From the NCBI GenBank assembly GCA_047602505.1, contig JASGHD010000001.1:2911929-2975928 (forward strand): a stretch of 64,000 nt of DNA, written 5' to 3'. A program made the position numbers and the translations under genes. The DNA is from Opitutaceae bacterium. GTDB taxonomy: Bacteria; Verrucomicrobiota; Verrucomicrobiia; Opitutales; Opitutaceae. The notes below the pieces were generated by a model. That model was not told where the DNA came from and did no database searches. It saw only the letters and a program-made list of their open reading frames with translations. Shown one piece after another: positions 3,315-63,586 of this stretch (position 1 is its first letter; each line of letters opens with the position of its first letter).

Positions 3315-5318
3315 ATGTCCCCCGTTTCACCGCCCTCCGCGCTCCTCCAGACGATGGCCCCCGGCTTCGGCGTCACCGAGCTCATCCGAACCGCGGATAC
3401 ACTCAGGCAGACCGGCCGGGCCGCCGCCATCGAGCCGCTCTACGCCACCTGGATCGCGCGCAACTCCACCCACCCGCTCCTCTACGCCATCCTCTTCAAC
3501 TACTCGGTCACCCTCTCCGACGCCGGCAAACTCGACGCCGCCCGCACCGCCCTCGAGCACGCCCTCGCGCTCAACGCCGACTTCCTGCCCGCCCACATCA
3601 ACCTCGGGCGGCTCTATGAACGCCTCGGCATGGTCGGCCTCGCGCTCGTCCAGTGGTCCGCCGTGAGCACCAAGCTCGCCGCCGTCAACGGCCCCGCCAT
3701 CGCGCACAAGACGATGGCGCTCAACCAGAGCGCCCGCGCGCTCGAGGCCGCCGCCCAGGATGAGCCCGCCGAGGATCTCCTCCGCCAGAGCCTCGAGATC
3801 GACCCGCGCCAGCACGAGGTCGCGCAACACTTCCTCGCCCTGCGCCAACGGCAGTGCAAATGGCCCGTCGTGGTTCCGTGGGAACGCGTCGACCGCGAGA
3901 CCCTCCTGCGCGGCATGTCCCCCCTCTCGTTCGCCGCCTACACCGACGACCCGCTGCTCCAGCTCGCCGCCGCCGCGCACTACAACCGCACCGAGATCGG
4001 CGCGCCCGCCTCGCCACCGCCGGCGCTCGATCGCGCCCGCGCGAGCGGCCCGCGTCTGCGCCTCGGCTACGTCTGCTCGGATTTCCGTGAACACGCGCTC
4101 GGCTACCTCCTCACCGAGGTGCTCGGCCTCCACGACCGCGCCCGGGTCGAGGTTTTTGCCTACTACTGCGGCCCCGAGGCCGCCGACCCGCTCCACGCGC
4201 AGTTCCAGACCACCGCCGATCACTGGGTGCCGATCACCGCGCTCGACGATGCCACCGCCGCCGCGCGCATCGCGGCCGACGGCATCCAGATTCTCGTCGA
4301 TCTCAACGGCTACACCCGCGAAGCCCGCGTGAAACTCTTCGCGCTCCGCCCCGCGCCGGTGCTCGTCAACTGGCTCGGCTACCCCGGCACGATGGCGAGC
4401 CCGTATCACCACTACGTCATCGCCGACGACTGGATCGTCCCGCCCGAGCACGAGCTCTACTTCTCCGAGCGCGTGCTCCGCCTGCCGTGCTACCAGCCCA
4501 GCGCGCGCACCCGCACGGTCGCGCCCGAGCCGCCCACGCGCGCCACCGCCGGCCTGCCGGACGACGCGATCGTCTACTGCTGCTTCAACGGCGCGCACAA
4601 GATCACCCGTTTCACGCTCGACCGCTGGCTCTCCATCCTCGAACGCGTGCCGCGCAGCGTGCTCTGGCTGCTCGGCAGTTCCGACGCCGCACAGGAACGC
4701 CTCCGCTCCCACGCCGCGCGCCGCGGGCTCGATCCGCAACGCCTCGTCTTCGCCCCGAAGCTCGCCAACCCGCACCACCTCGCGCGCTACCCGCTCGCCG
4801 ACCTCTTCCTCGACACCACGCCCTACGGCGCGCACACCACCGCCTCCGACGCACTCTGGATGGGCGTGCCCGTGCTCACGCTCAGCGGTCGCTCCTTCGC
4901 CTCGCGCGTCTGCGGCAGCCTCGTGCGCGCCGCGGGCCTGCCCGAACTCGCCTGCACCCACGCGCTCACGTTCCTCGCCACCGCCGTCGATCTCGGCCTG
5001 CACCCGGAAAAACTCCGCGCGCTCCGCGCCCGGCTCGCCGCCAACCGCGACACCTGCACGCTCTTCGACATGCCGCAGCTCGTCGCCCGCCTCGAGGATC
5101 TCTACGCCGAGATGTGGGCCGCTTGTGAAGCCGGACGCCTCCCGCAGCCCGATCTCGCCAACCTCGACGTCTACCTCGAAGTCGGCGCTCAGCTCGACCA
5201 CGAGGAGATCGATGTGCAGGCGATCGACGACTACCACCAGTTCTGGCGCGAACGGCTCCTCCGCCGCCACGCCTTCCGCCCGCTCTCTCCCGACCGCCGT
5301 CTGGTCGACTTCGCCTGA
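3315..5318 (+). CDS. TPR-repeat glycosyltransferase of the O-GlcNAc transferase (GT41/SPINDLY-like) family.
   Basis: The N-terminal half is TPR-like. The C-terminal half carries the OGT catalytic-domain hallmarks: LRLGYVCSDFREHALGYLL, ILVDLNGYT, VLVNWLGYPGT, YCCFNGAHKITRFTLDRW, LFLDTTPYGAHTTASDALWMGVPVLTLSG. Confidence 0.8.
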   Translation: MSPVSPPSALLQTMAPGFGVTELIRTADTLRQTGRAAAIEPLYATWIARNSTHPLLYAILFNYSVTLSDAGKLDAARTALEHALALNADFLPAHINLGRLYERLGMVGLALVQWSAVSTKLAAVNGPAIAHKTMALNQSARALEAAAQDEPAEDLLRQSLEIDPRQHEVAQHFLALRQRQCKWPVVVPWERVDRETLLRGMSPLSFAAYTDDPLLQLAAAAHYNRTEIGAPASPPPALDRARASGPRLRLGYVCSDFREHALGYLLTEVLGLHDRARVEVFAYYCGPEAADPLHAQFQTTADHWVPITALDDATAAARIAADGIQILVDLNGYTREARVKLFALRPAPVLVNWLGYPGTMASPYHHYVIADDWIVPPEHELYFSERVLRLPCYQPSARTRTVAPEPPTRATAGLPDDAIVYCCFNGAHKITRFTLDRWLSILERVPRSVLWLLGSSDAAQERLRSHAARRGLDPQRLVFAPKLANPHHLARYPLADLFLDTTPYGAHTTASDALWMGVPVLTLSGRSFASRVCGSLVRAAGLPELACTHALTFLATAVDLGLHPEKLRALRARLAANRDTCTLFDMPQLVARLEDLYAEMWAACEAGRLPQPDLANLDVYLEVGAQLDHEEIDVQAIDDYHQFWRERLLRRHAFRPLSPDRRLVDFA

Positions 5319-5360: not shown

Positions 5361-5383
5361 CATGTCAACTATTGGTTGACCTG
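5361..5383. repeat. Palindromic element copy 1 (CATGTCAACTATTGGTTGACcTG; right arm slightly degenerate).
   Basis: A 9-bp inverted repeat around a 5-nt loop. It lies between the convergent 3' ends of the OGT-like gene and cysJ. Confidence 0.6.
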
Positions 5384-5471: not shown

Positions 5472-7187
5472 TCAATACACGTCGCGCTGGTAGCGCCGGC
5501 TGGCGACGAGCGCATCGACATACTCCGCGGCCGCCTCCGGCGAGCGCCCGCCGGCAGTCGCGACAATCTTCAGCAACGCGGCGTGCACGTCCTTCGCCAT
5601 GCGGCTTGCGTCGCCGCACACATACACGTGCGCGCCAGCCTCGAGCCACGCCCACAGCTCCGCGGCCTGCGCGAGCATCCGGTGCTGCACGTAGACCTTC
5701 TCGTTCTGGTCGCGCGACCACGCGAGATCGAGCCGAGTGAGCAACCCGTCCGCGCGCCACGCGAGCAACTCGTCGCGATAGAGGAAATCGGCCGCCTCGC
5801 GCTGGTCGCCGAAGAAGAGCCAGTTGCGCCCCGCCGCCCCGGTCGCGCGGCGCTCGCCGAGAAACGCGCGGAACGGCGCGATGCCCGTGCCCGGCCCGAT
5901 CATGATCACCGGGGTGGCCCCATCGGCGGGGAGACGGAAGCCGCGGTTCGTGTGCACGTACACGCCGGCCGAGCCGATGTTGAGCGCGCGGTCGGCCAGG
6001 AACGTCGAGGCCACGCCGTGCCGCCGCCGGCCGTGCAGCTCGTAGCGCACGGCGCCGACGGTCAGGTGCACCTGGCCCGGAAACGCCTTGGGCGAGGAGG
6101 AGATTGAATACAACCGCGGTTGCAGCGGCCGCAGGAGCCGCACGAACTCGCCGGGCGCCAGCCGCTTCGCTCCCGGCGCACTGACAGCGTCGATCACATG
6201 GTGCAGCACCGCTGCCGGCGCCAGACCACACGCGGCGAGCAGCTCCGGCGTCGGTTTCCCCAGATCGAAATTGCGCACCAGCGCCGTGCGCAGTGGCAAC
6301 TCGCCGGCGGGCGTGGGCACCGGCTCCTCGCCATCGCACCCCAGCGCCGCCGCGACGGTGTCGGCCAACGCGGGATCGTTGAGCGGCACCAGTCCGAGTG
6401 CGTCGCCCGCTTCGTAGGTGATCCCTGAATCCGCGAGCGAAAACTCGACATGGTTCACCTCCTTTTCCGAGCCGGACCCGCTCAACCGGCGCACCGCGAG
6501 CAGCGGAGCAGGGAAGGGACGCGCGCGGCTGTAGGCGGGCTCGCTCCCCGGCTCCGCGGGCGCGGCCGCCGGGGTTGTCGATGGATTGGCCGGCGTGTCC
6601 CCGGCGAGCACGCCTAGGGCGGCGCCGAGCCACGCCTCGAATTTTGCGCTGTCACCCGCCTCGCACTCGGCGACCGGCAACAGCCGCTTCGCCCCGAGCG
6701 CGCCGAGCCGCTCGTCGAACTCCTTCCCGCACTGGCAGAACTTCGCGTAGTTGCGGTCGCCGAGCGCGCACACGGCGAAGGTGAGCTGCTCGAACCGCGG
6801 GGCCCCGGCGCGGGCGAGCGCGGCGTGCAGGACCTTCGCGTTGTCGGGCGGCTCGCCGTCGCCATACGTGCTCGTGATCACGAGCACGGTCGTCTCCTGC
6901 GCGAGTGCGGCGAGCGCGACTTCGCCCATGTCGCGCACGGTCGGCGCGAACCCGCGTTTCTTCGCTTCCTTGGCAAACTTCTTCGCGAGCCCTTCACACG
7001 TGCCGGTCTGCGATCCGTAGACGACGAGCAGCGTCTTCGCCGGCGCGGGCGGGGCGGCGGGCGCGGGCGGCGCCCCGGTCGCGATTTCCTGGCGACTGTA
7101 GAGGCCGGCGAGGAAGCCGTTGAGCCACGCGCGTTGCTCGGGTGTGAACGGTGCGGTTTCGGGCAGACAGGGGGCGGCGACGGTCAT
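5472..7187 (-). CDS. cysJ: Sulfite reductase [NADPH] flavoprotein alpha subunit, CysJ-like (flavodoxin + FAD/NADPH oxidoreductase).
   Basis: Flavodoxin-like stretch LLVVYGSQTGTCEGLAKKFAKEAKK…VITSTYGDGEPPDN. FAD motif RLYSISSSPK. NADPH motif GPGTGIAPFRAF. C-terminal YVCGDASRMAKDV…YQRDVY. Confidence 0.8.
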   Translation of the reverse strand: MTVAAPCLPETAPFTPEQRAWLNGFLAGLYSRQEIATGAPPAPAAPPAPAKTLLVVYGSQTGTCEGLAKKFAKEAKKRGFAPTVRDMGEVALAALAQETTVLVITSTYGDGEPPDNAKVLHAALARAGAPRFEQLTFAVCALGDRNYAKFCQCGKEFDERLGALGAKRLLPVAECEAGDSAKFEAWLGAALGVLAGDTPANPSTTPAAAPAEPGSEPAYSRARPFPAPLLAVRRLSGSGSEKEVNHVEFSLADSGITYEAGDALGLVPLNDPALADTVAAALGCDGEEPVPTPAGELPLRTALVRNFDLGKPTPELLAACGLAPAAVLHHVIDAVSAPGAKRLAPGEFVRLLRPLQPRLYSISSSPKAFPGQVHLTVGAVRYELHGRRRHGVASTFLADRALNIGSAGVYVHTNRGFRLPADGATPVIMIGPGTGIAPFRAFLGERRATGAAGRNWLFFGDQREAADFLYRDELLAWRADGLLTRLDLAWSRDQNEKVYVQHRMLAQAAELWAWLEAGAHVYVCGDASRMAKDVHAALLKIVATAGGRSPEAAAEYVDALVASRRYQRDVY

Positions 7188-15874: not shown

Positions 15875-18800
15875 ATGAACGCCATCACCTCGCTCGGCTC
15901 CACGATTCCGCAACTTGCTTGCCGCTTGTTCCGAGGTGGACCGCGTTGCCCTCAACGCGGTCAGACGCGATTGTTCGTTGCCGCCTTGTTCGCCCTCACG
16001 GGCGCGCTCGCCGCGGCGCCGAAACCGGCCGACACCGCGAAAACCTCCGCCACGCTCACACCTGACGGCGGGCGGATCGTCGTCGATGTGCAGGGCGTGC
16101 CGCCGGCAGTGCCGCTGTTCTTCTCGGCCGCCGCCGAGCAGACCGTGCGCCTCAGCGCCGCCGAGATCACCGGCGAGCTGCGCCTGAAACTCCACGTCGT
16201 GCAGGGCAAACCCGAGGTGCTCGCGCTCGGCCTCAGCGGCGAGGGCGAGGTCACCGAAGTGAGCGGCGAAGGCCTTGCCTCGTGGGCGGTGCGCCAAGTG
16301 CCGCTCTCCGGGAAACGTTTCCTCGACCTGCGTCCGGCGCTCGCCGAGGGCGCGCCCTTACCGCGCGATCTCGACCTCGTCGTCCGCACGCGTCTCCGCA
16401 AACCCACCGTGCCTGGCGCCGCCTCCGTGCTCATCGCCGCTCCCGGCGACGCCGTGGGCTTCGCCTCCACGATCACCCTCCAGGCCGACGCCGCGCTTGA
16501 TCTTCGCGTGACGGCCGCGAGCGGTCTCGTCGCGCTGGGCGAACAGCGCAGCCCGCGCGATCCGGTGCGTTTCCAGACCACCGGCGAGGGCGCGCTCACG
16601 GTCCGTCTCACCCCGCGCGGTGCGGCTCCGGCCGAAGCCGAGCTCCTCGGCGCGCAACTCTCCGGCAAGATCAACGAGACCGCGAAGAGCGCGGAGTTCC
16701 GCCTGCGCGCGCAGCTCCGCTCCGCGAAGGCCGGCGCGCGGCTCCCGCTCCTCAAGGGCAGCGCCGCCCCGAGCGACAAGGCCGCCGGCGACGGCTGGCA
16801 CCTCGAACTCGCGCCGGCCGACAGCGCGTTCCAGGACTACGAGCTCGTGACCGAGCGCGAGGGCGCGCTGGCCGTCGATCTGCCGTTCGCCGCCGCGATC
16901 CGCGAAGCGGGGGAGTGGCGCGTGCTCGATTTCTCGATGCCGGCCGGCGCGGTCGTGCCGATCCAGCTCGACGGTCTGCCGGCCGGCGTGAGCTTCGATC
17001 CCGAGCGGCCCGTGCTGCCGGTCGCCACGGCGCAGGGTTGGCAGGGTTTCCTCCCGGCCGACGGTGCCACGGCGCTCGCGTGGAAGCATGCCGCCAAGGT
17101 CGTCGAGGGCGCGCTGTTCTTCACCAGCAGCGAGCAGACCGATTCGCGCCTCGGCGCCGGCCTGTTGCGCCAGGAAGCGACGCTCGCGCTCCAGATTCTC
17201 CAGGGAAAACTCACCGCGCTCCGTATCCGCCTCGACGGGCCGGGCGAGATCGTGGGCGTCGAGGGCGCGAACCTCCTGAGCTGGCGCGTGGTGCCGGCCG
17301 AGGGCGCCCGCGCGCTCGAGGTGCAGTTCAGCCGCCCGATCGAGCAGACCAGCGCGATCACGGTGCGCAGCCAGACGGAGCTCGGCGGCTTCCCGATTCG
17401 CGTGGAACCGCTGCGGCTCTCGCCCGAGGGCGTTGTGCGCCACTCCGGTTTCCTGCGCGTGGCCAACGACGGCGCGGTGCGTCTCGAGGTCGCCGAGGCC
17501 TCCGGCATGATGCAGCTCGCACCCGAGCAGTATCCGACCGGCGAGCTCGACGACGACGCGGTGCGGCAGGTCTTCGTGTACCGGTTCCCGGCGGCGACCT
17601 ACAGCTACCGCCTCCTCGCCTCGCAGATTCAGCCGGAGGTCGGCGTCTCCGCGATCCTCACCTACGAGCTCGGCGAAACCGACCGCACCATCGCGGCGAG
17701 CCTCGAACTGGACATCCGCGAGGCGCCGTTGCGTGACTGGACGCTCCAGATCCCGGCCGACTACACGGTGGTCGGCGTGACCGGCGGCGACGTGAGCGAC
17801 TTCATCGCCGAATCGACCGCGGTCGACGGCCGGCGCGCGTTGAAGGTGCTGTTCGCCGAGCCGGTCGAGGGGCGGCAATTGCTCCAGCTCCGCCTCGAGA
17901 AGAACCAGGCCGCCGCGGCGGGCGAGTGGGCGTTGCCGGCGCTGCGTTTCCCCGGCGCGAAGTCGGTCCGCGGCCATATCGGAGCCGTGGCGACGCCGGG
18001 CTACCGTCTTGTGCCGGCCGGCGTCGACAAGCTCGTCGAGGTGCCGCTGAGCTATTTCCCGCAGCAGACCGCGCGGCTCCAGCAGGCGTGGCGGTTGCGC
18101 GACGCCGAGTGGTCGGCCGCGCTGAAGATCGAGGCGCTCGGGCAGAGCGTGCAGGCCGACGTTTTCCACCTCTATACGGTGAAGGAGGGCGTGGTCTACG
18201 GCAGCGTGCTGCTGAACTATTTCGTCGTCGGCGCGCCGGCGACCGAGTGGCGCCTCGCGGTGCCCGCCGAGGTGGGCAACATCGACGTGGTCGGCCAGAA
18301 CGTCCGCCGCGACTGGCGGCGCGAGGGCGACCAGCTCGTTGTTTCACTCCATCAGCCCGTGCTCGGCGCGGCGACGTTGCTCGTGACCTTCGAACAGCCG
18401 ATGAGCGCGCGCGGCGGCACGATCCAGCCCGGCCAAGTGCGCCCGCTCGGCGTGCAGGCGGAGCGCGGCTACGTGCAGGTCGTGAGCCCCGCGCAGGTGA
18501 AGCACGAGATCCGCAAGGCCGAGGGCGGTCTCCTGAAGCTGGAGCCGCTGGAGCTGCCCACCGAGTTCCGCCTGCTCACCAGCTCGCCCTCGCTCGCGCT
18601 CTACCAGTACACCGCGCGGCCGTTCGCGCTCGAGGTGGGCGTCGAGTGGTACGACGCCGGCGAGACCGTCGACCAGGTCGTCGATTTTGCGAAGCTCTCC
18701 AGCCAGATCTCCCGCGACGGCCAGGTCGTGACCGACGCGCAGTTCTTCGTGAAGACCCGCGGCCGCAAGGCTCTGCGGCTTGAGCTCCCCGCTGGCGCGA

Positions 18801-21800
18801 AGCTCTGGGAGGCGCGCGTCGACAACGAGATCGTCAACGCCCGAGCCGACGGCAACCAGACGCTCGTGCCGCTGCCGGCGAAGCTGAATCCCAACGACCC
18901 GGTGGCCGTCGCGCTGCGTCTCGGCCAGGCGGCGGGCGGCAGCGCGACCATCAAGCTCGTCGCGCCGCGCACCGTGGCGCCGAGCGTCATCAACGAATGG
19001 ACGCTGCACGCCGACTCCGGCCGCCTGCTCGCCCCGCGCGGCGGCAACGCCGAGCTGCTCCGCCCCGCGCTCACCGAGACCGGTTTCGAGTGGATCGCTG
19101 GCCGCGGCGTGTTCACTGCGGGACTGCTGCTGGCGTTCACCGCGCTTGGCGCGTTGTTGGCCCGCGGCTCGTCGCGCCAGCAGATCTTCGCGCTGATCCT
19201 CTTCGCCAACGTCACGATCGCCGCGTTGCTCGTCGCCGCTTCGGCGATGGTCAACCGTCGCTCGAACATCCAGGAGCTCACCTATGCCGCCACGATGGTG
19301 CCCGCCGAGGAGGCCGTGACGATCACGGTGCTGAACGGGACCGCTTGGCAGGCGATGGTCTCGTGGTGGGGCGTGGTCGCGGTGGTGGTCGGCGCTGTGG
19401 TGACCGTGGGCTCGCGTTTCGTGGGTAGGGCGAACCCTCCGGGTGAGCCGCAACCATCGGCTCACCGGGGACGGTTCGCCCTACCTGTGGGTGTCGCGCT
19501 CGTCTCCGCCGGCCTGCTCGCGCAGCACGGCGGGGCGATCATCTTCTACGGCTGGGGTGCGCTCGCCGTGTGGCTGCTGCTCTTCATGCCGACGCTCGGC
19601 CGCTGGAACCACGATCGCCGCGAGCGCCAGTTCGCCGAACAGGCGGAGCCGCCGCCGGTGCCCGGTGGCGAGTCTTCGGGTTCCGGTGCGGCCTCGGTGC
19701 TGCCGCTGGTCGCGCTGCTCGGCGCGCTCGCCTTCGGTTTCGGCGCGCAACCGGCGCAGGCGCAGAATCAGGTCGACCAGATCACGCCGACACCGGTGGA
19801 TCCGGCCTTGGCTGGGCGACCGGCACAATCGGCCGTGCAGACCTGGACGATTCGCGAAGACCGCCTCTACGGCGAGCTGGAGCTCACCGTGCGCGGCGGG
19901 CCCGGCGACAGCTTCCTCCTGCTGCGCCCGCCCGCGGTGCTGACCGAGTTCAAGGCCGACGGCCTGCGTCTCGGAAAATCCGAGCTCAACGGCCAGACTT
20001 CGTACTTCGTCGCGCCCGAGCGCGAAGGCCTGCTCACGGCGCGCGTGCGCTTCGAGCTGCCGGTGCCGAAGGGGACGACGCAGATCGTGCTCCCGACCGG
20101 CGCCGCGGCCACGCAGCGCGTGACTGTTGCCCTCGATCAGGGCGGCTGGGAGTTCGCCTCGCCGGCGGCGGTGCAGGTGGTGCCGACGCCGAATCTCGGC
20201 GACGCCCGCAGCGGCGCGACCCTCGTGCTCGCGCCGCAGGGCGCGGCGGTCGTGCAGTTGCTGCCCAAGCGCCGCGACCTCGCGACCGAGGCGACGCAGT
20301 TCTTCGCCGAGACGACGCAGCTCTTCCTCCCCGGCCCCGGCGTGGTGAACGGCCGCATGGTTGTCTCGATCCGCCCGGTGCAGGGCCGCGTTTCCTCGCT
20401 CGTGCTCGACGTGCCCGCGGGGCTGACCGTGGGCACGGTGGAGGGCGACGGGACGGAGGTCTCCACGTGGCGCTTCGACCCGGAGAAACGCCGGCTGGCG
20501 ATCACGCTCGCCTCGCCGCAGGAGCGGCAGTTCCGCGTCGGCATCGAGACGCAGCTCGGGACGGGCGCGCTGCCGTTCGATCTCACGCTCACGCCGCTGC
20601 GCGTGGTCGGCGCCGCCGGCGATGTCGGCACGCTCGCGCTCGCCTTCGGCGGCGACGCGCAGCCGGAGAGCGTGCGCGCCAGCGGGCTCTCGCCGGTGAA
20701 CACCGAGGATTTCGACCCCGAGCTGATTCCCGAGACCAAGGACGGCGAACCGAGCGCGACGCTCCAGCACGTGTGGCGTTTCGGCCAGGGCGGCGGCAGC
20801 GTGTCGCTCAAGATCGCGCCGGTCGCGCCCGAGGTGCGCGTCGTGGGCCGGCAGGTGCTCTCGCTCGACGATGACCGTCTGGTGATGGCCGTCGATCTCG
20901 CGGCGGAGATCACGCGCGTCGGGTTGTTCAAACTCAGTTTCGTGCTGCCCGTGGGCCTCGAGGTCGAGGCGCTCAGCGGCAAGGCGCTCAGCCATTGGAC
21001 GGAGGCGCAGGAGGGCAACCAACGCGTGGTGACGCTGCACCTCAACGGCCGCACGATCGGCGACGAGAAGTTCACGCTCACGCTCGCCGGCGCCGCGCCC
21101 CGTGCGCAGGAGGCCTGGCCGATCCCGCACCTGCAGGTGCGCGAGGCCACGCGTCAGACTGGCGAGGCGCTCGTCGTGCCCGGCAAGGGCCTGCGGCTGC
21201 GCGCGGTGGAGCGCGAGAAGGTTACGCAGCTCGACCCGCGACAGGTCGGCGGTCTGCAACCCGGCACGCTGGCGTTCCGGCTGTTGCAGGAGGATTGGTC
21301 GGTGAAACTAGGTATCGAGGCGCTGGAGCCGTGGGTGACGGTGCAGGCGCTGCAGGAGACGACCGTGCGCGAGGGCCAGACGCTCGTGCGGCTCGCGCTG
21401 CGCTACCGCGTGGAGAACGCCGCGGTGAAACAATTCCGCGTGAAGCTGCCCGGCCTCGGCGAGGAGCGCGCCCGCACGGTGCGCGCCACCGGCGCCGCGG
21501 TGAGCGACATGGTGCGCGTCGCCGGCAGCGACGACACCTGGGAGATTCGCCTGCAGCGCGGCATCGCCGGCGAGACCGACGTGCAGATCGAGTTCCAGGG
21601 GCCGTCGACCGGCGACCAGAAGCTGGAGACGGTGGCGATGCCGGAGTTCGTCGGCGTGCGGCAGGCGGTGCAGTTCGCCGCGGTGCGCGCGGGCGGCCGG
21701 CTCGAGCTCGAGACCGGCGCGCTTCCACGCGGTTGGTCGCGCACCGACTGGAGCGCGGTGCCCGCGATCCTGCAGAACCGCACCGACCGGAGCGTGCCGG

Positions 21801-22942
21801 CGCTATGTTTCCGCGTGGCCGAGGCCGAGGGGCCGCTGCCGGTGGCGGTGCGGCGGCATGAAGTTGCCGAGGCACTCAAGCTCCGCGTGACGCAGGGCGA
21901 CCTCACGACGTTGTTCTCGCCCGCGGGCGCATGCCTCACGGCGGTGGACCTGCGCGTCGACGTGCTCGAGAAGAGCACGCTGCGCGTGCGGCTGCCGGAG
22001 GGCGCGCGGCTTTTCAACACGCTCGTCAACGGCGAGAGCGTGTCGGTCGTGCGCGAGGGCGACGCGTTCCTCTTCCATGTGACGCCGAACACGGCGGGCG
22101 AGCGCTCGGCGGCGGTGCGGCTCGTGTACTCGGCGCCCGGAGGCAAGGGCGGCGACGTCGGGCTCGTCGGCCCGCGGCTCAACGTTCCGCTGGAGAATGT
22201 GACGTGGCGCGTGGTGATCCCGCCCGGCTACGAGCTGGAGAGCTACGGCGGCGGGCTGCGGTTGCGCGAGGAGCGCTACGGCAGCTCGTTCGGCGGGCTG
22301 GAGCAGTACCAGTCGTCGATCGTCTCGAAGCGTTCGGCCGAGTCGAAGAAGGCCGTGGCGATGATGCAGGAGGCGAGTTCGCTCCTGCAGAAGGGCGACC
22401 AGCAGAAGGCCAGCGAGGTGCTCTCACGCGCCTACAACACGCAGGCGCTCGACGAGGCCGCGAACGAGGACGCCCGCGTGCAGCTCCGGAATCTGAAGAC
22501 GCAGCAGACGGTGCTCGGCCTCAACACGCGCCGCCAGCGCCTCTACCTCGACAACCGCGTCGACGCCGCGCGCAACGAGCAGCTCGAGCAGGCCGCCAGC
22601 CTGAATCCGTTCATGCAGGGCAACGTGAACTTCAACCCGCAGCAGGTCGACCAGCTGCTCATGGGCAACTCGGCCGACGAGAACACCGCGCTGCGCGGCA
22701 TCGCCGACCGGCTTGTCGACCAGCAGCTCGCCGCCGAGCCGGCGCCGCGCGCGATCGACGTGACGCTCACCGAGCGCGGCCGGGTGTTCACGTTCACCCG
22801 CAGCCTGCAGGTCGAAGGCGACAAGCCGCTCCAGCTCACGCTCGATCTCGCGCGCACGGCGCGTCCGCCGTACGCCACCGCAATCGTGCTGCTCCTGGCG
22901 ATCGCCGGCATCGCCATCATCCCGCTCGTGCGGCGGAAGTGA
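15875..22942 (+). CDS. Giant (2355 aa) secreted, membrane-anchored protein of unknown function.
   Basis: N-terminal signal peptide (FVAALFALTGALAAAPKPA). Mostly non-repetitive, beta-rich-looking sequence. A cluster of hydrophobic helices near residues 1080-1230. C-terminal TM anchor (IVLLLAIAGIAIIPLVRRK). No catalytic motif was recognised. Confidence 0.65.
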   Translation: MNAITSLGSTIPQLACRLFRGGPRCPQRGQTRLFVAALFALTGALAAAPKPADTAKTSATLTPDGGRIVVDVQGVPPAVPLFFSAAAEQTVRLSAAEITGELRLKLHVVQGKPEVLALGLSGEGEVTEVSGEGLASWAVRQVPLSGKRFLDLRPALAEGAPLPRDLDLVVRTRLRKPTVPGAASVLIAAPGDAVGFASTITLQADAALDLRVTAASGLVALGEQRSPRDPVRFQTTGEGALTVRLTPRGAAPAEAELLGAQLSGKINETAKSAEFRLRAQLRSAKAGARLPLLKGSAAPSDKAAGDGWHLELAPADSAFQDYELVTEREGALAVDLPFAAAIREAGEWRVLDFSMPAGAVVPIQLDGLPAGVSFDPERPVLPVATAQGWQGFLPADGATALAWKHAAKVVEGALFFTSSEQTDSRLGAGLLRQEATLALQILQGKLTALRIRLDGPGEIVGVEGANLLSWRVVPAEGARALEVQFSRPIEQTSAITVRSQTELGGFPIRVEPLRLSPEGVVRHSGFLRVANDGAVRLEVAEASGMMQLAPEQYPTGELDDDAVRQVFVYRFPAATYSYRLLASQIQPEVGVSAILTYELGETDRTIAASLELDIREAPLRDWTLQIPADYTVVGVTGGDVSDFIAESTAVDGRRALKVLFAEPVEGRQLLQLRLEKNQAAAAGEWALPALRFPGAKSVRGHIGAVATPGYRLVPAGVDKLVEVPLSYFPQQTARLQQAWRLRDAEWSAALKIEALGQSVQADVFHLYTVKEGVVYGSVLLNYFVVGAPATEWRLAVPAEVGNIDVVGQNVRRDWRREGDQLVVSLHQPVLGAATLLVTFEQPMSARGGTIQPGQVRPLGVQAERGYVQVVSPAQVKHEIRKAEGGLLKLEPLELPTEFRLLTSSPSLALYQYTARPFALEVGVEWYDAGETVDQVVDFAKLSSQISRDGQVVTDAQFFVKTRGRKALRLELPAGAKLWEARVDNEIVNARADGNQTLVPLPAKLNPNDPVAVALRLGQAAGGSATIKLVAPRTVAPSVINEWTLHADSGRLLAPRGGNAELLRPALTETGFEWIAGRGVFTAGLLLAFTALGALLARGSSRQQIFALILFANVTIAALLVAASAMVNRRSNIQELTYAATMVPAEEAVTITVLNGTAWQAMVSWWGVVAVVVGAVVTVGSRFVGRANPPGEPQPSAHRGRFALPVGVALVSAGLLAQHGGAIIFYGWGALAVWLLLFMPTLGRWNHDRRERQFAEQAEPPPVPGGESSGSGAASVLPLVALLGALAFGFGAQPAQAQNQVDQITPTPVDPALAGRPAQSAVQTWTIREDRLYGELELTVRGGPGDSFLLLRPPAVLTEFKADGLRLGKSELNGQTSYFVAPEREGLLTARVRFELPVPKGTTQIVLPTGAAATQRVTVALDQGGWEFASPAAVQVVPTPNLGDARSGATLVLAPQGAAVVQLLPKRRDLATEATQFFAETTQLFLPGPGVVNGRMVVSIRPVQGRVSSLVLDVPAGLTVGTVEGDGTEVSTWRFDPEKRRLAITLASPQERQFRVGIETQLGTGALPFDLTLTPLRVVGAAGDVGTLALAFGGDAQPESVRASGLSPVNTEDFDPELIPETKDGEPSATLQHVWRFGQGGGSVSLKIAPVAPEVRVVGRQVLSLDDDRLVMAVDLAAEITRVGLFKLSFVLPVGLEVEALSGKALSHWTEAQEGNQRVVTLHLNGRTIGDEKFTLTLAGAAPRAQEAWPIPHLQVREATRQTGEALVVPGKGLRLRAVEREKVTQLDPRQVGGLQPGTLAFRLLQEDWSVKLGIEALEPWVTVQALQETTVREGQTLVRLALRYRVENAAVKQFRVKLPGLGEERARTVRATGAAVSDMVRVAGSDDTWEIRLQRGIAGETDVQIEFQGPSTGDQKLETVAMPEFVGVRQAVQFAAVRAGGRLELETGALPRGWSRTDWSAVPAILQNRTDRSVPALCFRVAEAEGPLPVAVRRHEVAEALKLRVTQGDLTTLFSPAGACLTAVDLRVDVLEKSTLRVRLPEGARLFNTLVNGESVSVVREGDAFLFHVTPNTAGERSAAVRLVYSAPGGKGGDVGLVGPRLNVPLENVTWRVVIPPGYELESYGGGLRLREERYGSSFGGLEQYQSSIVSKRSAESKKAVAMMQEASSLLQKGDQQKASEVLSRAYNTQALDEAANEDARVQLRNLKTQQTVLGLNTRRQRLYLDNRVDAARNEQLEQAASLNPFMQGNVNFNPQQVDQLLMGNSADENTALRGIADRLVDQQLAAEPAPRAIDVTLTERGRVFTFTRSLQVEGDKPLQLTLDLARTARPPYATAIVLLLAIAGIAIIPLVRRK
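19425..19484. repeat. REP-like element copy lying in-frame inside the giant ORF.
   Basis: GTAGGGCGAACCCTCCGGGTGAGCCGCAACCATCGGCTCACCGGGGACGGTTCGCCCTAC is 60 bp and translates as VGRANPPGEPQPSAHRGRFALP without breaking the frame. Confidence 0.6.
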
Positions 22943-23194: not shown

Positions 23195-23217
23195 AATGTC
23201 AACTAATGGTTGACATG
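23195..23217. repeat. Palindromic element copy 2 (aATGTCAACTAATGGTTGACATG).
   Basis: Same 9-bp arms with loop TAATG. It lies 250 bp downstream of the giant gene and 335 bp upstream of uxuA. Confidence 0.6.
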
Positions 23218-23551
23218 ACAACCTGGTACCGCGGAGAACACCGGGTACCGATCCCGTATCGGACGGATGGGGCGGTTACCGACGAAGCGCGGCGGGAAGC
23301 AGCGCTTGATCGGGACGCGCTCCGGAGGCGGCGGGCTCCGGCCGTGGCGCGCTCCGGTCGTGGCGAAAGCCGCCACGGCTTTCGCGAGCCCGCTGCGCGG
23401 TGCCGCCAGCCTCCTTGCGCCGAAGCTGCAGCGAGCTTCAGCACATCTGCGCGGACTTTGCCGCACCCGCGGTTGGTGTACGGCTACCGGCAAGCGCATC
23501 GCGGCGGGCGCGGCGTTTCGCAACCTGCGCCGTTTCCGACGACATTCCCCC

Positions 23552-24625
23552 ATGAAAATGACGTTCCGCTGGTTCGGTGAACACGACGACTGCATCGCGC
23601 TCTGGCAGGTGCGGCAGATCCCGGGCGCGCCCGGCATCGTCGGCGCGCTTTTTGACGTGCCCGTTGGCGAGGTCTGGCCGACCGAGAAGATCGCACACCT
23701 CAAGGGCACAGTCGAAGCCGCAGGGCTCAAGCTCGAGGTGATCGAGAGCGTGAACGTGCACGACGACATCAAGTTGGGCGCGCCCACACGCGACCGCTAC
23801 ATCGAGAACTACCGCGAGACGCTGCGCCGCCTGGCTCGCGTCGGCATCAAGGTCGTCTGCTACAACTTCATGCCGGTGTTCGACTGGCTGCGCACGGATC
23901 TCGCGCACCCGCTGCCCGACGGCTCCAATGCGCTCTTCTACGAGGCCGCGAAGGTGAAGGATCTCACGCCGGAGACTGTGCTCGATCTGTTCTCGCGCAG
24001 CGCGAACGGCTTCAAGCTCCCGGGTTGGGAACCCGAGCGCCTCGCGCAACTCAAGGAGCTCTTCGCGAAATATGCGGTCGTGGACACCGACAAGCTCTTC
24101 GCGAACCTGAAGTACTTCATCGATGCGCTCATGCCGGTGTGCGAGGAGTGCGACATCCGCATGGCGATCCACCCCGACGATCCGCCGTGGCCGATGTTCG
24201 GCCTGCCGCGGATCGTGACCGACGAGGCGAAGATCGCGCGCGTGCTCGCGCTCAACCCGAGCACGTACCACGGGCTGACGTTCTGCACGGGCTCGCTCGG
24301 CGCCAACCCCGCCAACAATCTGCCCGCGATGATCCGCCGTTTCGGCGCGCAGGGGCGGATCCACTTCGCGCATTGCCGCAACATCCTGCGTTTCCCCAAC
24401 GGCGATTTCACCGAAGCCTCGCACCTCTCGCGCGACGGCTCGGTCGACATGTACGAGGTCATGAAGGCGTATCGGGACATCGGTTTCAGCGGCTACATGC
24501 GCCCGGACCACGGCCGCATGATCTGGGGCGAGACCGGCCGGCCCGGCTACGGTCTCTACGACCGCGCGCTCGGCATCGCTTACCTCAACGGCCTTTGGGA
24601 GGCGCTCACCAAGGGCGCCGCCTGA
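23552..24625 (+). CDS. uxuA: Mannonate dehydratase.
   Basis: MKMTFRWFGEHDD…VCYNFMPVFDWLRTDL…LPDGS closely matches the UxuA N-terminal signature, and the length (357 aa) is typical. Confidence 0.9.
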   Translation: MKMTFRWFGEHDDCIALWQVRQIPGAPGIVGALFDVPVGEVWPTEKIAHLKGTVEAAGLKLEVIESVNVHDDIKLGAPTRDRYIENYRETLRRLARVGIKVVCYNFMPVFDWLRTDLAHPLPDGSNALFYEAAKVKDLTPETVLDLFSRSANGFKLPGWEPERLAQLKELFAKYAVVDTDKLFANLKYFIDALMPVCEECDIRMAIHPDDPPWPMFGLPRIVTDEAKIARVLALNPSTYHGLTFCTGSLGANPANNLPAMIRRFGAQGRIHFAHCRNILRFPNGDFTEASHLSRDGSVDMYEVMKAYRDIGFSGYMRPDHGRMIWGETGRPGYGLYDRALGIAYLNGLWEALTKGAA

Positions 24626-43961: not shown

Positions 43962-45095
43962 TCATCCGAGCCTCCGTTTCGTGCGCGCGATGGCGGCGAC
44001 GAGCATCAGCGCGGCGAAACCAAGCAGGAACAGCGCGTCGCCCCAGAGGATCGTGACGCCGGTGCCGCGGAGGAAGATGCCTTTCACGAGGGCGACGAAG
44101 TAGCGCGCCGGCACGATGTGGGTGATGCCGCGCACGACGACCGGCATGTTGGCGATGGCGAAGGCGAAGCCGGAGAGCAGGAAGGCCGGGAGGAACGTGG
44201 CCACCATCGCGAGCTGGCTGGCGAGCAACTGCTGGCGCGTGATCGTGCTAATCAGGATGCCCTGCGCGAGCGTGGCGACGATGAACACGGTGCCCACGCC
44301 GAAGAGCAGCAGCACGCTGCCGCGCAGCGGCACATCGAAGAGGAAGACGGCCATCGCCACGGCGATGACGAAATCGACGAGGCCGACACCGAGGTACGGC
44401 AGGAGTTTTCCGAGGATCAACTCGGGCGGGCGCACCGGCGTGGAGATGAGCTGCTCCATCGTGCCGGTCTCCCATTCGCGCGCGATGGTCAGCGAGGTGA
44501 GCAGCGCGGAGATCAACCCCATGATGACGGCGAGGATACCGGGCACGATGAAGTTGCGGCTGGCGAGGTCGGGGTTGAACCACACGCGGGTGCGCAGATC
44601 GAGGCCGGTGCCCGGCGCGAGCCCGGTGCGGCGGCGGACCTGGTCCAGCGCGAGCTGCTGGTTGAACGCCAGTGCGATGGCCTGCGTGTAGCCGAGGACG
44701 ATGCCCGCGGTGTTCGAGTCGGCGCCGTCGACGATGGCCTGCACGGGCGCGGAGCGGCCGGCGTCGAGATCGCGCGCGAAGTCGGGACGAATGACGAGGG
44801 CGAGCATCGCCTCCCGCGAGTCGATCGCGTGCTCGAGCTCGGCGTAGGAAGCCACCTCGCCGCGGAACGCGAAATACGGCGTGCCGGTGAAACGTGCGAC
44901 GAGCTCCCGGCTCCGCGGCGTGCCGCTCTGGTCCCACACGACGAACGGCACGCGGTCCACATCGAGCGTGAGCGCGTAGCCGAAGGCGAGCAGCATGAGC
45001 AGCGGGATGCCGACGGCGAGGCCGAGGCTGCGCGGGTCGCGGCGGATGTGGAGCGCTTCCTTGCGGGCGATGGCCCAGAGGCGGCGAAAGTTCAT
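43962..45095 (-). CDS. ABC-2 family transporter permease (YbhS-like).
   Basis: MNFRRLWAIARKEALHIRRDPRSLGLAVGIPLLMLLAFGYALTLD; paralogue of the downstream permease. Confidence 0.85.
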   Translation of the reverse strand: MNFRRLWAIARKEALHIRRDPRSLGLAVGIPLLMLLAFGYALTLDVDRVPFVVWDQSGTPRSRELVARFTGTPYFAFRGEVASYAELEHAIDSREAMLALVIRPDFARDLDAGRSAPVQAIVDGADSNTAGIVLGYTQAIALAFNQQLALDQVRRRTGLAPGTGLDLRTRVWFNPDLASRNFIVPGILAVIMGLISALLTSLTIAREWETGTMEQLISTPVRPPELILGKLLPYLGVGLVDFVIAVAMAVFLFDVPLRGSVLLLFGVGTVFIVATLAQGILISTITRQQLLASQLAMVATFLPAFLLSGFAFAIANMPVVVRGITHIVPARYFVALVKGIFLRGTGVTILWGDALFLLGFAALMLVAAIARTKRRLG

Positions 45096-46090
45096 CGGCG
45101 GAACTCCTGTTGCGCGCCGGCGGCACGGTCGTGGGCCTCGATGAGCGAGACGAACACATCCTCCAATGTGGGCACGATCCGCTCGACGCGGGCGACGGCG
45201 ATGCGTTCGGCGGCGAGGGCGCCGCGGACCGCGGCGACCGCGGAGTCGGCATCGGCGGCGACGACATGGAGGCCTTTGCCGAAGAGAGCCGTTTCCTTCA
45301 CGGCCGGCACACGCGCGAGCACGGTCATCGCGTCGCTCGGGCGCTCGCAGTCGATCTCGAGCACGGCGTCGGTCATGTGGGTGGTCTTCAGGTCGCGCGG
45401 GCGGCCGAGGGCGATCAGTTCGCCGCGGTAGACGATGCCGAGCCGGTCACAATACTCGGACTCCTCCATGTAGTGGGTTGTCACGAACACCGTCACTCCC
45501 TGGCCGGCGAGCGTGTAGATGAGGTCCCAGAACTGACGGCGGCTGATCGGGTCGACGCCGGAGGTCGGCTCGTCGAGGAAGAGGATCGGCGGCTCGTGGA
45601 GCACGGCGCAGCCGAGCGCGAGGCGTTGCTTCCAGCCACCGGAGAGCGTGGACGTGCGCGAGCCGCGGTGCGCGGCGAGGCCGGCCATCTCGAGCACCCA
45701 GGCTTTGCGGGCGGCCTTCTTCGCGGCGGGGATGCGGTAGATGCCGCTGTAGAAATCGATGTTCTCCTCGACGGTGAGCTCGTCGTAGAGGGAGAACTTC
45801 TGGCTCATGTAGCCGATGCGCTCCTTGATGCGCTCGGTCTGCGTGCGGATGTCGAAACCGGCGACCCGGCCGCTGCCGCCGCTCGGTGCGAGGAGGCCGC
45901 AGAGCATCCGGATGGTGGTGGACTTGCCCGCACCGTTGGGGCCGAGGAAGCCGAAGATCTCGCCGCGCGCGACGGAGAACGAGACGCCCGCGACCGCGCG
46001 AAACGCGCCGAAACGTTTCTCGAGATTTCGCACCTCGACGATCGGTTCGGCGGCGGGAGCGACGGCGACGTTGGATGGCGAATCGGTCAT
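45092..46090 (-). CDS. ABC transporter ATP-binding protein.
   Basis: Walker A GPNGAGKSTT, signature LSGGWKQRLAL, Walker B LFLDEPTSGVD. Confidence 0.9.
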   Translation of the reverse strand: MTDSPSNVAVAPAAEPIVEVRNLEKRFGAFRAVAGVSFSVARGEIFGFLGPNGAGKSTTIRMLCGLLAPSGGSGRVAGFDIRTQTERIKERIGYMSQKFSLYDELTVEENIDFYSGIYRIPAAKKAARKAWVLEMAGLAAHRGSRTSTLSGGWKQRLALGCAVLHEPPILFLDEPTSGVDPISRRQFWDLIYTLAGQGVTVFVTTHYMEESEYCDRLGIVYRGELIALGRPRDLKTTHMTDAVLEIDCERPSDAMTVLARVPAVKETALFGKGLHVVAADADSAVAAVRGALAAERIAVARVERIVPTLEDVFVSLIEAHDRAAGAQQEFRR

Positions 46091-46114
46091 GGCGACGCGG
46101 GTATCGGCGGCTTG

Positions 46115-47062
46115 TCAGCCATTGGTTGACGTGCCCGCGGGGCTCGCCGGCTGGCCGACGACGGAGACGAAAACATCCTCAAGCGAGGGCTCGATGGGGT
46201 GAAGCGAGAGCAGCTCGAAACCGGCGGAGGCGACGAGGCGCCGCGTCTCGGCCTCCGCCGCGGCGGGCTCGCGCGTGGCGACATGGACGCGGTCGCCGAA
46301 GAGGCCGACAGTGGCGGATTGGAGGCGTGCGCGCAGGAGCGTGGCGGTGCGGCGCGGCGCGGCGGTGCGGACCTCGAGGAGCGTGCCCGGCATGAGGCGC
46401 TTCACCTCGACCGGTGTGCCCAGACCGAGGAGACGGCCGGCGTGGAGGAGCGCGAGGCGGTTGCAGCGCTCGGCCTCGTCGAGGTAGGCGGTGGAGACGA
46501 AGAGCGTCACGCCCTCGCGCACGAGCTGGTAGAGGATGCGCCAGAAGTCGCGGCGGGAGACGGGATCGACGCCGTTGGTGGGCTCGTCGAGGAACAGCAC
46601 GCGCGGGGTGTGGATGAGCGCGCAGGCGAGGCCGAGTTTCTGTTTCATACCGCCGGAGAGGTTGCCGGCGAGCCGGTGCTTGAACGGGGTGAGGTTGCTG
46701 AAGCCGAGCAGCCGCTCGGTGCGCGCGGCGAGTTCGCGGCGCGGCACGCCGTAGATGTCGGCGTAGAAGGCGATGTTTTCGAGGACGGAGAGATCGGGGT
46801 AGAGGCCGAAACGCTGGCTCATGTAGCCGATGTGGTCCTTGAGTCGCACGGCGTCGCGCCCGACATCGCAGCCGGCGACCTCGGCGGTGCCGGAGGTGGG
46901 CGAAAGGATGCCGGTGAGAAGGCGCATCGTCGTTGTTTTTCCGGCACCGTCGGGCCCGACGAGGCCGAAGATCTCACCTTCGGCCACCTCGAGGTCGAGG
47001 GCGTCGACGGCCACGAGTTCGCCGAAGGTGCGGCGGAGTTGGCGGGCGCGGATCGCGGGCAT
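46115..47062 (-). CDS. ABC transporter ATP-binding protein (second copy).
   Basis: Walker A GPDGAGKTTT, signature LSGGMKQKLGLACAL, Walker B LFLDEPTNGVD. Confidence 0.9.
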   Translation of the reverse strand: MPAIRARQLRRTFGELVAVDALDLEVAEGEIFGLVGPDGAGKTTTMRLLTGILSPTSGTAEVAGCDVGRDAVRLKDHIGYMSQRFGLYPDLSVLENIAFYADIYGVPRRELAARTERLLGFSNLTPFKHRLAGNLSGGMKQKLGLACALIHTPRVLFLDEPTNGVDPVSRRDFWRILYQLVREGVTLFVSTAYLDEAERCNRLALLHAGRLLGLGTPVEVKRLMPGTLLEVRTAAPRRTATLLRARLQSATVGLFGDRVHVATREPAAAEAETRRLVASAGFELLSLHPIEPSLEDVFVSVVGQPASPAGTSTNG

Positions 47063-48884: not shown

Positions 48885-48925
48885 AGGCCGGGCGTGAAGG
48901 CCCGGCCGGAAAGACGAACTAGGAC
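48885..48925 (-). terminator. Rho-independent terminator after the RRM protein gene.
   Basis: Minus strand reads CCGGGCCTTCACGCCCGG followed by CCTTTTTTGTTGTCC. Confidence 0.55.
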
Positions 48926-48931: not shown

Positions 48932-49333
48932 TCAGTAGCGGCGCTCGCGACGCTCGCCGCGTTCCCCGCCGAACCCACGGTCGCCACGATCACCGCCACG
49001 GCCGCCGCCGAAGCCGCCGCGACCACCGCCACCGCCAAACCCGCGGCCGCCGCCACCGAAGCCACCGCTGCGCGGCGGACGGTCTTCTTTCGGGCGGGCC
49101 TCGTTGACGGTGAGATTGCGGCCCTCGATGGAGAAGCCGTTCAACGCCTGGATCGCTTTCTGCGCCTCCTCGGGTGTCGCCATGGTCAGAAACGCGAACC
49201 CGCGCGAACGACCGGTGAACTTGTCGGAGATGAGTTCAACTCCCGTCACATTACCGTGCTGTGCGAACAGGTTCTGGAGGTCCTGGGAAGTCGTGGAGAA
49301 GGGGACGTTCCCGACGTACAGTTTGGTGCTCAT
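48932..49333 (-). CDS. RRM-type RNA-binding protein with Gly/Arg-rich tail.
   Basis: RNP2 [11 protein letters not shown]1 RGFAFLTM, then [18 protein letters not shown]. Confidence 0.9.
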
Positions 49334-51572: not shown

Positions 51573-51602
51573 GCCCCCGCTGCGGCGCCGCCCTATGGGG
51601 CT

Positions 51603-52292
51603 TCACATTGCTCGCGCGAAGCGGCCGGTGCGGAGGAACGCAAGCGCCTGCTCGGCGGTGCGTCGGCGGAAAAGGATCAACGTGTGGTTCGAGGGCAGCG
51701 TGATGTGGTCGGCCATGCCCTCGAGGCGCGTGCTGCGCTCGGCGACGGTGCCGTCGTGCGGGCGCTCGAGGAACCACCAGCCGATCGGGTTGAGGGCGAA
51801 GCTACCGGCGATCACGCCGAATTCGAAATCAGGGCACGGCGGCAGCGTGCGCCAGTAGGCATCCGGGCCGGTGCCGAGCGCGCCGAGGTTGCGGCCGATG
51901 ATCCGCCAGATGATGGGCAGGCGGCGGAGCTTGTCGGAGACGGCGCTGCCGTTGTGCGGCGGTACGATGTTCACCACGCGGCCAAGATTTGCGGGCCGGT
52001 GCGCGGCAAGGTAGCCGCGCACGATCAGGCCGCCCATCGAATGGGTCACGAAGTGCAGACGCGGCGCGCGATCGACTCCGAGGCCCGCCAGCTTCGCGGC
52101 CAGCCAGCGCGGGCCGAGCTCGGCGAGCGGCACGGTCTTCGAGGGATAATCGAGGTTGTGCACCTCGTAGCCGGCGGCGGTGATGTGACGGGCGAGGCGA
52201 GCGGTCAACCGGCTGCTGATCGCGACCCCGTGGAGGATCACGACGACCTCGCGCGCGGCGGATGCCGGGATGGCGGGGGCGGGCGCGTTCAT
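51603..52292 (-). CDS. Alpha/beta-fold hydrolase (lipase/esterase-like).
   Basis: VVILHGVAISS…; nucleophile elbow HSMGG. Confidence 0.75.
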   Translation of the reverse strand: MNAPAPAIPASAAREVVVILHGVAISSRLTARLARHITAAGYEVHNLDYPSKTVPLAELGPRWLAAKLAGLGVDRAPRLHFVTHSMGGLIVRGYLAAHRPANLGRVVNIVPPHNGSAVSDKLRRLPIIWRIIGRNLGALGTGPDAYWRTLPPCPDFEFGVIAGSFALNPIGWWFLERPHDGTVAERSTRLEGMADHITLPSNHTLILFRRRTAEQALAFLRTGRFARAM

Positions 52293-53152: not shown

Positions 53153-53314
53153 GCGGCCAGCCAACGGACCGCGGCGAACGCGGGCGACATTTTTCCAGCC
53201 GGACCTCGGCGTCCTCGACGCGGTGCAATTCGCGGCGGTCTTTCCCGCGACGGGGGCCGCTGCGCGCGGCTCGCGGGGTTGTGTGCGGGTGAAAAAACGC
53301 CACAATGCGCGCGC

Positions 53315-54298: not shown

Positions 54299-54374
54299 AA
54301 CAGCGGATGGACGGGACGAAGCTTGTCGGACGGCCATGGGCTCTCCGACGTGAACCCCGCCACCGCTCGTACGC

Positions 54375-55208: not shown

Positions 55209-55234
55209 GGTACGATGCGGGCGGATTCTCCCGC

Positions 55235-55927: not shown

Positions 55928-55950
55928 CATGTCAACCAATAGTTGACATG
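55928..55950. repeat. Palindromic element copy 3 (CATGTCAACCAATAGTTGACATG).
   Basis: Perfect 9-bp arms. It lies between the convergent 3' ends of the ABM-DUF1805 gene and the TIR gene. Confidence 0.65.
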
Positions 55951-63521: not shown

Positions 63522-63586
63522 GGGGGTGAGCCGGCGATGGATGGGTCGGATGGGCCCGAAAGGACCTATGGAGAAATGAAAGGAGC

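Follow-up and report, generated by a model that had tools for sequence, protein, structure and literature searches.

What is a short, AT-rich palindrome doing at the ends of unrelated genes in the GC-rich genome of an Opitutaceae bacterium: does it act in RNA as a hairpin, in DNA as the binding site of a protein, or is it simply a repeat that has spread where it could? The question is raised by the window, a 64,000-nucleotide stretch of contig JASGHD010000001.1 (assembly GCA_047602505.1). An original prediction, made from its letters alone, described a family of five perfect 23-bp palindromes with a 5-nt loop, mostly at gene 3' ends, and interpreted them as REP/BIME-like bidirectional terminators or RNA-stability hairpins rather than operators. 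Among the features of bacterial genomes that lack an explanation, REP-type repeats are some of the most common, and the RAYT transposase is, to our knowledge, the only partner protein known for them.

Palindrome copies in the window

A mismatch-tolerant scan of the window for CATGTCAAC-N5-GTTGACATG, with the expectation derived from shuffles, recovered six copies where 0.00 were expected (Table 1). The motif is present at all five of the positions described originally, and the central pentamers had been read correctly (TATTG twice, CAATA twice and TAATG once in these five copies). Three of the five (copies 4, 5 and 6) are indeed perfect palindromes, whereas copies 1 and 2 each carry one mismatch, and the count of five had overlooked the degenerate copy 3. 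The predicted preference for gene 3' ends is borne out in the window, where copies lie in convergent gaps or past stop codons, overlap a stop codon or supply one. Genes were called with a third-position GC (GC3) heuristic because high GC content yields spurious ORFs; start codons are approximate under this procedure, and key genes were checked with Pfam.

Table 1. Positions, sequences and gene contexts of the palindrome copies in the window, and the syntenic position of the HTH cassette of related genomes
Feature	Position	Sequence	Gene context
Copy 1	5361-5383	CATGTCAACTATTGGTTGACCTG; one mismatch in right arm; 3' end reads GTTGACCTG (GACCTG)	Between the converging TPR/GT41 glycosyltransferase (3315-5318, +) and flavodoxin/FAD reductase (5472-7187, -) genes; 43 and 89 bp from the two stops
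Copy 2	23195-23217	AATGTCAACTAATGGTTGACATG; begins AATG, outer pair broken; rare TAATG centre	Co-directional gap, 253 bp beyond the stop of a 2355-aa ORF (15875-22942, +); ~300 bp 5' of the real uxuA start (UxuA domain from residue 96 of ORF 23267-24625)
Copy 3	46111-46133	CTTGTCAGCCATTGGTTGACGTG; degenerate, 3 mismatches; centre CATTG, within family range	Overlaps the stop codon of an ABC ATPase gene (46115-47062, -); 21 bp 5' of the start of an ABC ATPase gene (45092-46090, -)
Copy 4	55928-55950	CATGTCAACCAATAGTTGACATG; perfect	Convergent gap between an ABM/DUF1805 gene (55205-55822, +) and a TIR-domain gene (56344-57261, -); 106 bp past stop
Copy 5	60285-60307	Perfect	Co-directional gap with the NamZ stop (60489, -) on one side and a conserved 97-aa ORF (59812-60102, -) on the other; 182 bp past stop
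Copy 6	62309-62331	CATGTCAACTATTGGTTGACATG; perfect	Codes for the C-terminal MSTNS* (five codons and stop) of a glycerate kinase (62313-63590, -); Pfam domain ends 18 residues earlier
Empty syntenic spot	51573-51602		30-bp gap from EamA stop (51572) to abhydrolase stop (51603); neither HTH gene nor bracketing copies; relatives hold the cassette there

The 23-mer core has a GC content of 39%, against 62-73% across the window and 69% in the genome. All nine occurrences of GTTGACAT in the window lie inside palindromes, so that half-sites never stand alone, and a search for decayed copies (4-6 mismatches) found none there, indicating that window copies are either intact or absent. Neither conserved flanks nor a larger element was found around these copies, Rfam gave no match at gathering score anywhere in the 64-kb window, and a search of viral contigs returned no match.

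Other features of the window were recorded alongside the palindromes. Two GGTACC hexamers 13 nt apart (GGTACCGCGGAGAACACCGGGTACC, 23225-23249), which start seven bases after copy 2 in the long gap 5' of uxuA, may be the real operator of the hexuronate genes. The GC skew across the window (1-64000) runs from about -0.3 at the left end to +0.1 to +0.17 on the right, with a cumulative minimum near 16-24 kb, a trend that could reflect gene-strand bias or nearness to a replication landmark. The long minus-strand ORF at 52289-54502 is probably no gene; synteny with a related locus (L019) indicates that the real gene is at 53305-54378 (+, 357 aa, no Pfam match), which heads an operon with an AraC-type regulator gene (54375-55208) and the ABM/DUF1805 gene.

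Family consensus and lineage range

A scan of 185,579 species genomes (one genome per species) with ATGTCAAC-N5-GTTGACAT returned at least 115 loci. Of the 115 listed, 80 come from Opitutaceae, Opitutia, Lacunisphaera or Verrucomicrobiota MAGs with 62-71% GC and have a TAWTA/TAWTG-type centre; the remaining listed matches are spread over unrelated phyla, have unrelated centres and resemble chance hits. Lineage specificity, which the original prediction had named as a point to check, is thereby answered: among the matches listed, the family-type centre occurs only in Opitutaceae and related MAGs. No paper describing the palindrome motif was found in the literature.

The related loci were picked by exact arm match, and arm conservation within this set arises partly by construction. 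The centre is TAWTA or TAWTG/CAWTA in ~95% of about 90 copies from related genomes. The pentamer letters had been given correctly in the original prediction, but they are not free sequence: because the centre is conserved, the unit is a palindrome through its centre rather than a stem closed by an arbitrary loop. This unit, ATGTCAAC-TAWT(A/G)-GTTGACAT, measures 21 bp and is fully palindromic, and genome-specific symmetric extensions lengthen it to 23-33 bp. In this symmetric form, both strands read alike except for the middle base and the variable fifth base of the central pentamer. According to the position profile, conservation ends ~6 bp outside the unit on either side. The G-variant centre is nearly always TATTG and rarely TAATG, although independent mutation would give both equally, suggesting common descent by copying.

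Flanks follow dialects that are genome-specific and symmetric, such as ctg..cag, aac..gtt, gca..tgc and tc..ga. A comparison with within-genome shuffles gave 263 paired flank positions against 235 +/- 9 (1 of 1000 shuffles), a modest copy-specific excess; according to this control, flank symmetry is mostly dialect consensus, and an across-genome shuffle had overstated the copy-specific covariation. Some copies are long perfect palindromes of 40-51 bp.

Two loci, L032 (4931-5008) and L087 (3253-3330), contain pairs of AT-rich palindromes 55 bp apart within long ORFs; they have a TATTA/TAATA centre and other arms (AATGTTCG..CGAACATT and TTGTAACG..CGTTACAA), and could represent insertions of a related repeat family inside genes. 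A palindrome with a TAWTA centre in L109, considered as a sister family, proved to be an ordinary conserved coding stretch and was discarded.

Placement relative to genes

Across the 80 related loci (628 kb), copies in convergent, tandem and divergent gaps number 43, 35 and 4, compared with 16.7, 41.7 and 23.6 expected from gap length (chi-square p = 2e-13). Only 7 of 89 copies lie within called genes, which make up 80% of this DNA, and the median distance to the nearest stop is 70 bp. Within tandem gaps there is no stop preference, with 21 copies nearer the stop and 18 nearer the start. The rule is that copies can lie in any gap holding a gene 3' end and avoid promoter-only gaps. The REP/BIME-like concentration at gene 3' ends put forward in the original prediction thus holds beyond the window, and neither of the distributions that it named as contrary outcomes, random or promoter-concentrated placement, is observed. 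With a 21-23-bp core, six copies in 64 kb and 82 of 89 copies outside genes, the palindrome has the properties of a REP unit, that is, a short palindrome in many extragenic copies.

About 5-7% of copies give the upstream gene its stop codon, reading in the register also used at copy 6. The density is approximately one copy per 10-30 kb, at unrelated gene ends, and only a minority of convergent gaps contain a copy. Several gaps hold 2-3 copies, which in L082 and L083 arose via tandem duplication of ~130-200-bp blocks.

An asymmetric dialect and inverted doublets

A metagenome scan with AGTATAC-TAWTA-GTTGACAT returned at least 120 loci, in which an asymmetric dialect, carried by sister genomes, is represented by 196 units in 710 kb. 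Its consensus, GGCYTAAGTATAC-TATTA-GTTGACATCAG with a fixed central T, is a polar imperfect palindrome that pairs 5 of 8 arm positions. Placement follows the same rule as for the canonical form, with 67, 33 and 4 units in convergent, tandem and divergent gaps against 32, 49 and 23 expected, and 1 of 159 in coding DNA. The two dialects are mutually exclusive in the sampled DNA, canonical and asymmetric copies numbering 98 and 0 in the 628 kb of the first set and 0 and 181 in the 710 kb of the second.

The majority of asymmetric units (120 of 196, 61%) form inverted doublets, whose start-to-start spacings fall into the classes 37 (28 cases), 47-49, 54-58, 67-70 and 83-87 bp. In the 37-bp class, the 16-nt spacers have no sequence in common, nor are they self-complementary. 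A fold-back origin of the doublets was considered and rejected, as the spacers show no self-complementarity beyond the consensus. Set spacings combined with unconserved spacers fit a protein-binding geometry better than a composite element being copied. Units paired in inverted orientation at 300-400 bp were found on 13 contigs (one duplicating the contig of L120 and one with the upstream unit only), and all represent a cassette with a helix-turn-helix (HTH) gene.

An HTH gene bracketed by the repeat

In the orthologous loci L038 and L060, a 118-aa ORF lies between two inverted copies, one of them 27 bp 5' of the ATG. The corresponding family comprises 141 proteins, of which the 120 listed all range from 85 to 125 aa and share 58% identity or more with the query; the few with named hosts belong to Opitutae and Lacunisphaera. 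This lineage-restricted HTH gene, encoding 111-119 aa in the loci inspected, has inverted copies on both sides in 21 of 22 cases (L038, L060, L116, L118, L120, L122, L123, L124, L245 and L248, and 11 of 12 further metagenome contigs). It always occurs in the same EamA-(abhydrolase)-HTH / EamA-SWIB synteny, including in eight further members with contigs, all of them bracketed. In 8 of 10 cases inspected, 27-29 bp separate the end of the upstream copy from the ATG. In four of the eight further members the upstream site reads AAGTATAC-TATTA-GTTGACAT and the downstream site, at or just after the stop codon, is its reverse complement, so that the canonical arm points towards the gene on both sides. 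Each HTH gene is bracketed by its own genome's dialect, and no other genes were found between inverted units 0.5-3 kb apart. The original prediction that the palindrome is not an operator is therefore right in that no promoter-region operator set exists, but too sweeping in that relatives usually carry a copy ~28 bp 5' of the start of a Cro-like HTH gene, an operator-like position.

Pfam gave weak HTH_3/YdaS matches to the HTH protein, and a PDB sequence-profile search matched it weakly to the XRE regulator 3op9. Its AlphaFold model has a mean pLDDT of 72, with values of 79-87 in the C-terminal half and low confidence in the N-terminal half. The top PDB matches of this model in Foldseek were P22 c2, 434 Cro, C.AhdI, HigA and HipB, a consistent list despite weak E-values (0.2-1), and all of these proteins are dimeric binders of palindromic operators. 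The C-terminal half of the HTH protein is thus predicted to have a Cro/P22-c2-like fold.

The HTH gene is absent from the 64-kb window despite the six copies there, and the window's syntenic spot is empty (Table 1). In L116, L120 and L123 the abhydrolase ORF beside the cassette is 8-12 poorly conserved codons longer than that of the window, and takes its stop (TAA/TAG) from the outer arm of the unit. Recombination of the attL/attR type at hybrid sites was considered and rejected: the sites are inverted, and recombination between them would invert the segment, not excise it.

Conservation and turnover

In many syntenic pairs of loci from different MAGs, both members have a copy in the corresponding gap, with 68-94% identity of their coding DNA. 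Copy 5 is common to the window, L019 and L053, with 24 of 25 positions of TCATGTCAACTATTGGTTGACATG.TG (minus strand) identical in the three, and the rest of this gap is unalignable between the window and the two relatives. Copy 4 is absent at the same place in both, the gap in L053 being ~5 bp long and L019 being without the flanking genes, and further presence/absence cases occur among orthologous gaps. Insertion boundaries or target duplications were unreadable in the comparisons of occupied with empty gaps (L005/L087 and window/L053), which contain large unalignable blocks.

The 97-aa ORF next to copy 5 has no Pfam match, shows 96-99% protein identity among the window, L019 and L053, and always adjoins copy 5 and NamZ. 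The block between copies 4 and 5 (56344-59715) is variable relative to L019:4651-5987 and L053:6106-7327. Two extra genes in the window encode a 417-aa protein without a Pfam match (57394-58647) and a DUF2167 protein (58684-59715), and the window's TIR protein shares only ~45% identity with its positional counterpart in L019, also a TIR protein, compared with 80-99% for flanking genes. The block looks like a hypervariable, possibly defence-related islet.

Discussion

The closest known systems are the REP/BIME elements of Enterobacteria and Pseudomonas and the REPIN-RAYT systems (Bertels & Rainey, PMC3116915; Di Nocera et al., PMC3733652). Like these, the Opitutaceae repeat consists of ~20-35-bp palindromic units in many extragenic copies massed at gene 3' ends, forms inverted doublets, has lineage-specific variants, and persists vertically with local gain and loss; in addition, a single-copy syntenic gene lies between inverted copies of its own repeat, the 'REPtron' layout. 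By definition, REPs are imperfect palindromes marked on one side by a conserved GTAG (or CGTC) tag (PMC3733652), whereas the Opitutaceae repeat has neither tag in its consensus or flanks, is AT-rich in a 69% GC genome and, in the form found in the window, is palindromic through the centre. The bracketed gene encodes a Cro/XRE-like HTH protein and not an HUH tyrosine transposase, and the doublet spacers are fixed in length and unrelated in sequence, whereas those of REPINs are conserved; the doublets of the asymmetric dialect are, by this measure, not REPINs. One core also extends across the whole family Opitutaceae, whereas closely related species usually already have different REP sequences. 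In other phyla, hairpins of conserved sequence where genes converge are known as the paired DNA uptake sequences of Neisseria and Haemophilus and the 'TRIT' motif of Mycobacterium tuberculosis, which likewise are lineage-specific inverted repeats of fixed sequence 3' of genes, often between convergent pairs. However, uptake sequences also occur singly and within genes, whereas the palindrome has no solitary half-sites in the window and almost no coding copies, and the present evidence does not link it to DNA uptake or termination.

The role originally predicted, in which the transcribed palindrome would form a hairpin that ends transcription both ways or shields mRNA 3' ends from exonucleases, appears unlikely. 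Some E. coli REPs act in this way, their hairpins stopping transcription or protecting mRNA 3' ends, and the position of the Opitutaceae copies at gene 3' ends and in convergent gaps would suit such a role. Folding predictions give stable RNA hairpins (61-63-nt segments at -16 to -41 kcal/mol, lowest z-score -7.9), the symmetric flanks lengthen the stems in a partly copy-specific manner, and the orthologous pair L011/L078 shows a compensatory double change; this change and the long palindromes could reflect either hairpin selection or template-switch correction within palindromes. However, the position profile of related copies contains no T-run after the stem. The window's GC-rich genome uses canonical terminators, as indicated by one at 48886-48907 (-), which lies directly 3' of an RRM-domain gene (48932-49333) and has an 8-bp all-GC stem followed by a T-tract (GGCCGGGC...GCCCGGCC TTTTTT). 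The palindrome, with its 39% GC core and no T-run, is no intrinsic terminator by comparison, and a consensus scan scores only one of the six window copies, on the strand opposite to the gene ending there. Selection on a transcribed stem is not apparent either, G·U-type mismatches on the sense strand showing no excess over A·C-type mismatches in 40 co-directional contexts (23 vs 33). The absence of a stop-proximal preference in tandem gaps, a centre that is conserved in sequence and symmetric, an asymmetric dialect with the same placement and just 5 of 8 arm positions paired, and the small share of convergent gaps that hold a copy all count against an RNA-level element, which would also leave the bracketing of the HTH gene unexplained.

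Explanations at the level of DNA differ in the protein that they invoke. In an ordinary transcription-factor regulon, the copies would be operators of the adjoining genes; the size of the palindrome suits a dimer, TTGACA occurs in each arm, and one copy stands at a fixed distance 5' of the HTH gene. This reading is already contradicted by the placement statistics, with ~six-fold depletion in divergent (promoter-only) gaps and enrichment between converging stops; the neighbours are, moreover, functionally unrelated housekeeping genes, and we regard the reading as most improbable. The original suggestion that the arms could create promoters fared no better: no sigma-70-like promoter was found at the window copies (44-64 kb scanned), no -10 element lies at a fixed distance from the TTGACA arms in the profile of related copies, and the orientation of the T..G centre variant shows no bias relative to transcription direction. 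The operators of Cro/CI repressors, restriction-modification controller (C) proteins and HigA/HipB are similar to the copies at the HTH locus in being ~20-bp palindromes just 5' of a small HTH gene of the same predicted fold, in an autoregulatory layout. They occur, however, once or a few times per genome beside their own genes, whereas the Opitutaceae repeat is dispersed and has a second copy after the stop codon of the HTH gene. It is improbable that the repeat is a classical REP/REPIN moved by a RAYT (HUH tyrosine transposase) acting on single-stranded hairpins, with the HTH gene a bystander in a repeat hot spot. The repeat does resemble REPs and REPINs in its size, copy number, location outside genes and inverted doublets, genome-specific dialects imply a copying mechanism, and GTAG-tagged REPs are reported to abound in Opitutus terrae (PMC3733652). 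Those REPs, however, encode Gly/Pro/Ala-rich peptides (PMC3733652) and thus appear GC-rich, a class different from the AT-rich palindrome, which has no GTAG/CGTC tag, is fully symmetric in the window form and has unconserved doublet spacers. In addition, the only gene found between inverted units is the HTH gene (21 of 22 cases), and Y1_Tnp (RAYT) does not occur in the 25 top families, out of 108, listed for the 91 small proteins adjoining copies, a weak negative. Little probability is likewise given to a relic MITE network, in which an extinct DDE transposon would have left the units as its terminal inverted repeats, the 58-bp doublets as its miniature derivatives, and the HTH gene as a domesticated end-binding domain at the original insertion. 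The HTH cassette and the doublets share the same relative unit orientation, the cassette is missing as a block from the window's syntenic spot, and the core runs TG...CA, as do many transposon ends. Nevertheless, there is no variable target-site duplication: outer flanks belong to the conserved consensus or are inverted-complementary, and are not direct repeats. The interiors of the doublets show no sequence relationship, a relative of a transposase was not found, and the cassette occupies the same synteny in every inspected genome with no sign of recent movement.

We consider it somewhat probable that the palindrome is a lineage-specific REP-like dispersed repeat, most likely read as double-stranded DNA by a dimeric Cro/XRE-type HTH protein, for which the product of the bracketed gene is the candidate by association. 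Recognition of double-stranded DNA by a dimeric protein is favoured by the strand symmetry of the unit, its conserved centre, and doublet spacers that are quantised in length but free in sequence. Counting against this reading, the window combines six copies with an empty syntenic spot, although the HTH gene may lie elsewhere in that genome. In the proposed scheme, the HTH protein would bind the repeat with each monomer reading one GTTGACAT half-site, and would regulate its own gene through the upstream copy, the dispersed copies presumably serving as additional binding sites. Some process would make or homogenise the copies, which may survive only where promoters are undisturbed. A copying or homogenising process is needed because hundreds of sites, those at the HTH locus included, cannot switch dialect singly; the 116-aa HTH protein, having no catalytic domain, would not account for it. 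At gene ends, the bound protein might act as a roadblock or insulator between converging transcription units, or the copies might represent a selfish repeat that is tolerated. More tentatively, it is possible that the palindrome and the HTH protein constitute a new repeat-protein partnership, in which REPIN-like palindromes and a single-copy, bracketed Cro/XRE HTH protein acting at hundreds of gene-end sites (phased doublets in some lineages) would form a genome-wide roadblock or insulator, with a dialect co-evolving in each genome.

The motif provides a clean marker of Opitutaceae DNA and of gene boundaries in GC-rich genomes that are hard to annotate. REP-like placement and a REPtron-like layout occur here in a different phylum, with a small Cro-like DNA-binding protein as the product of the bracketed gene. 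If this protein binds the sites, it would become testable how a short repeat stays homogeneous throughout a genome without an obvious transposase, and whether bacteria separate converging transcription by sequence-specific proteins at gene ends.
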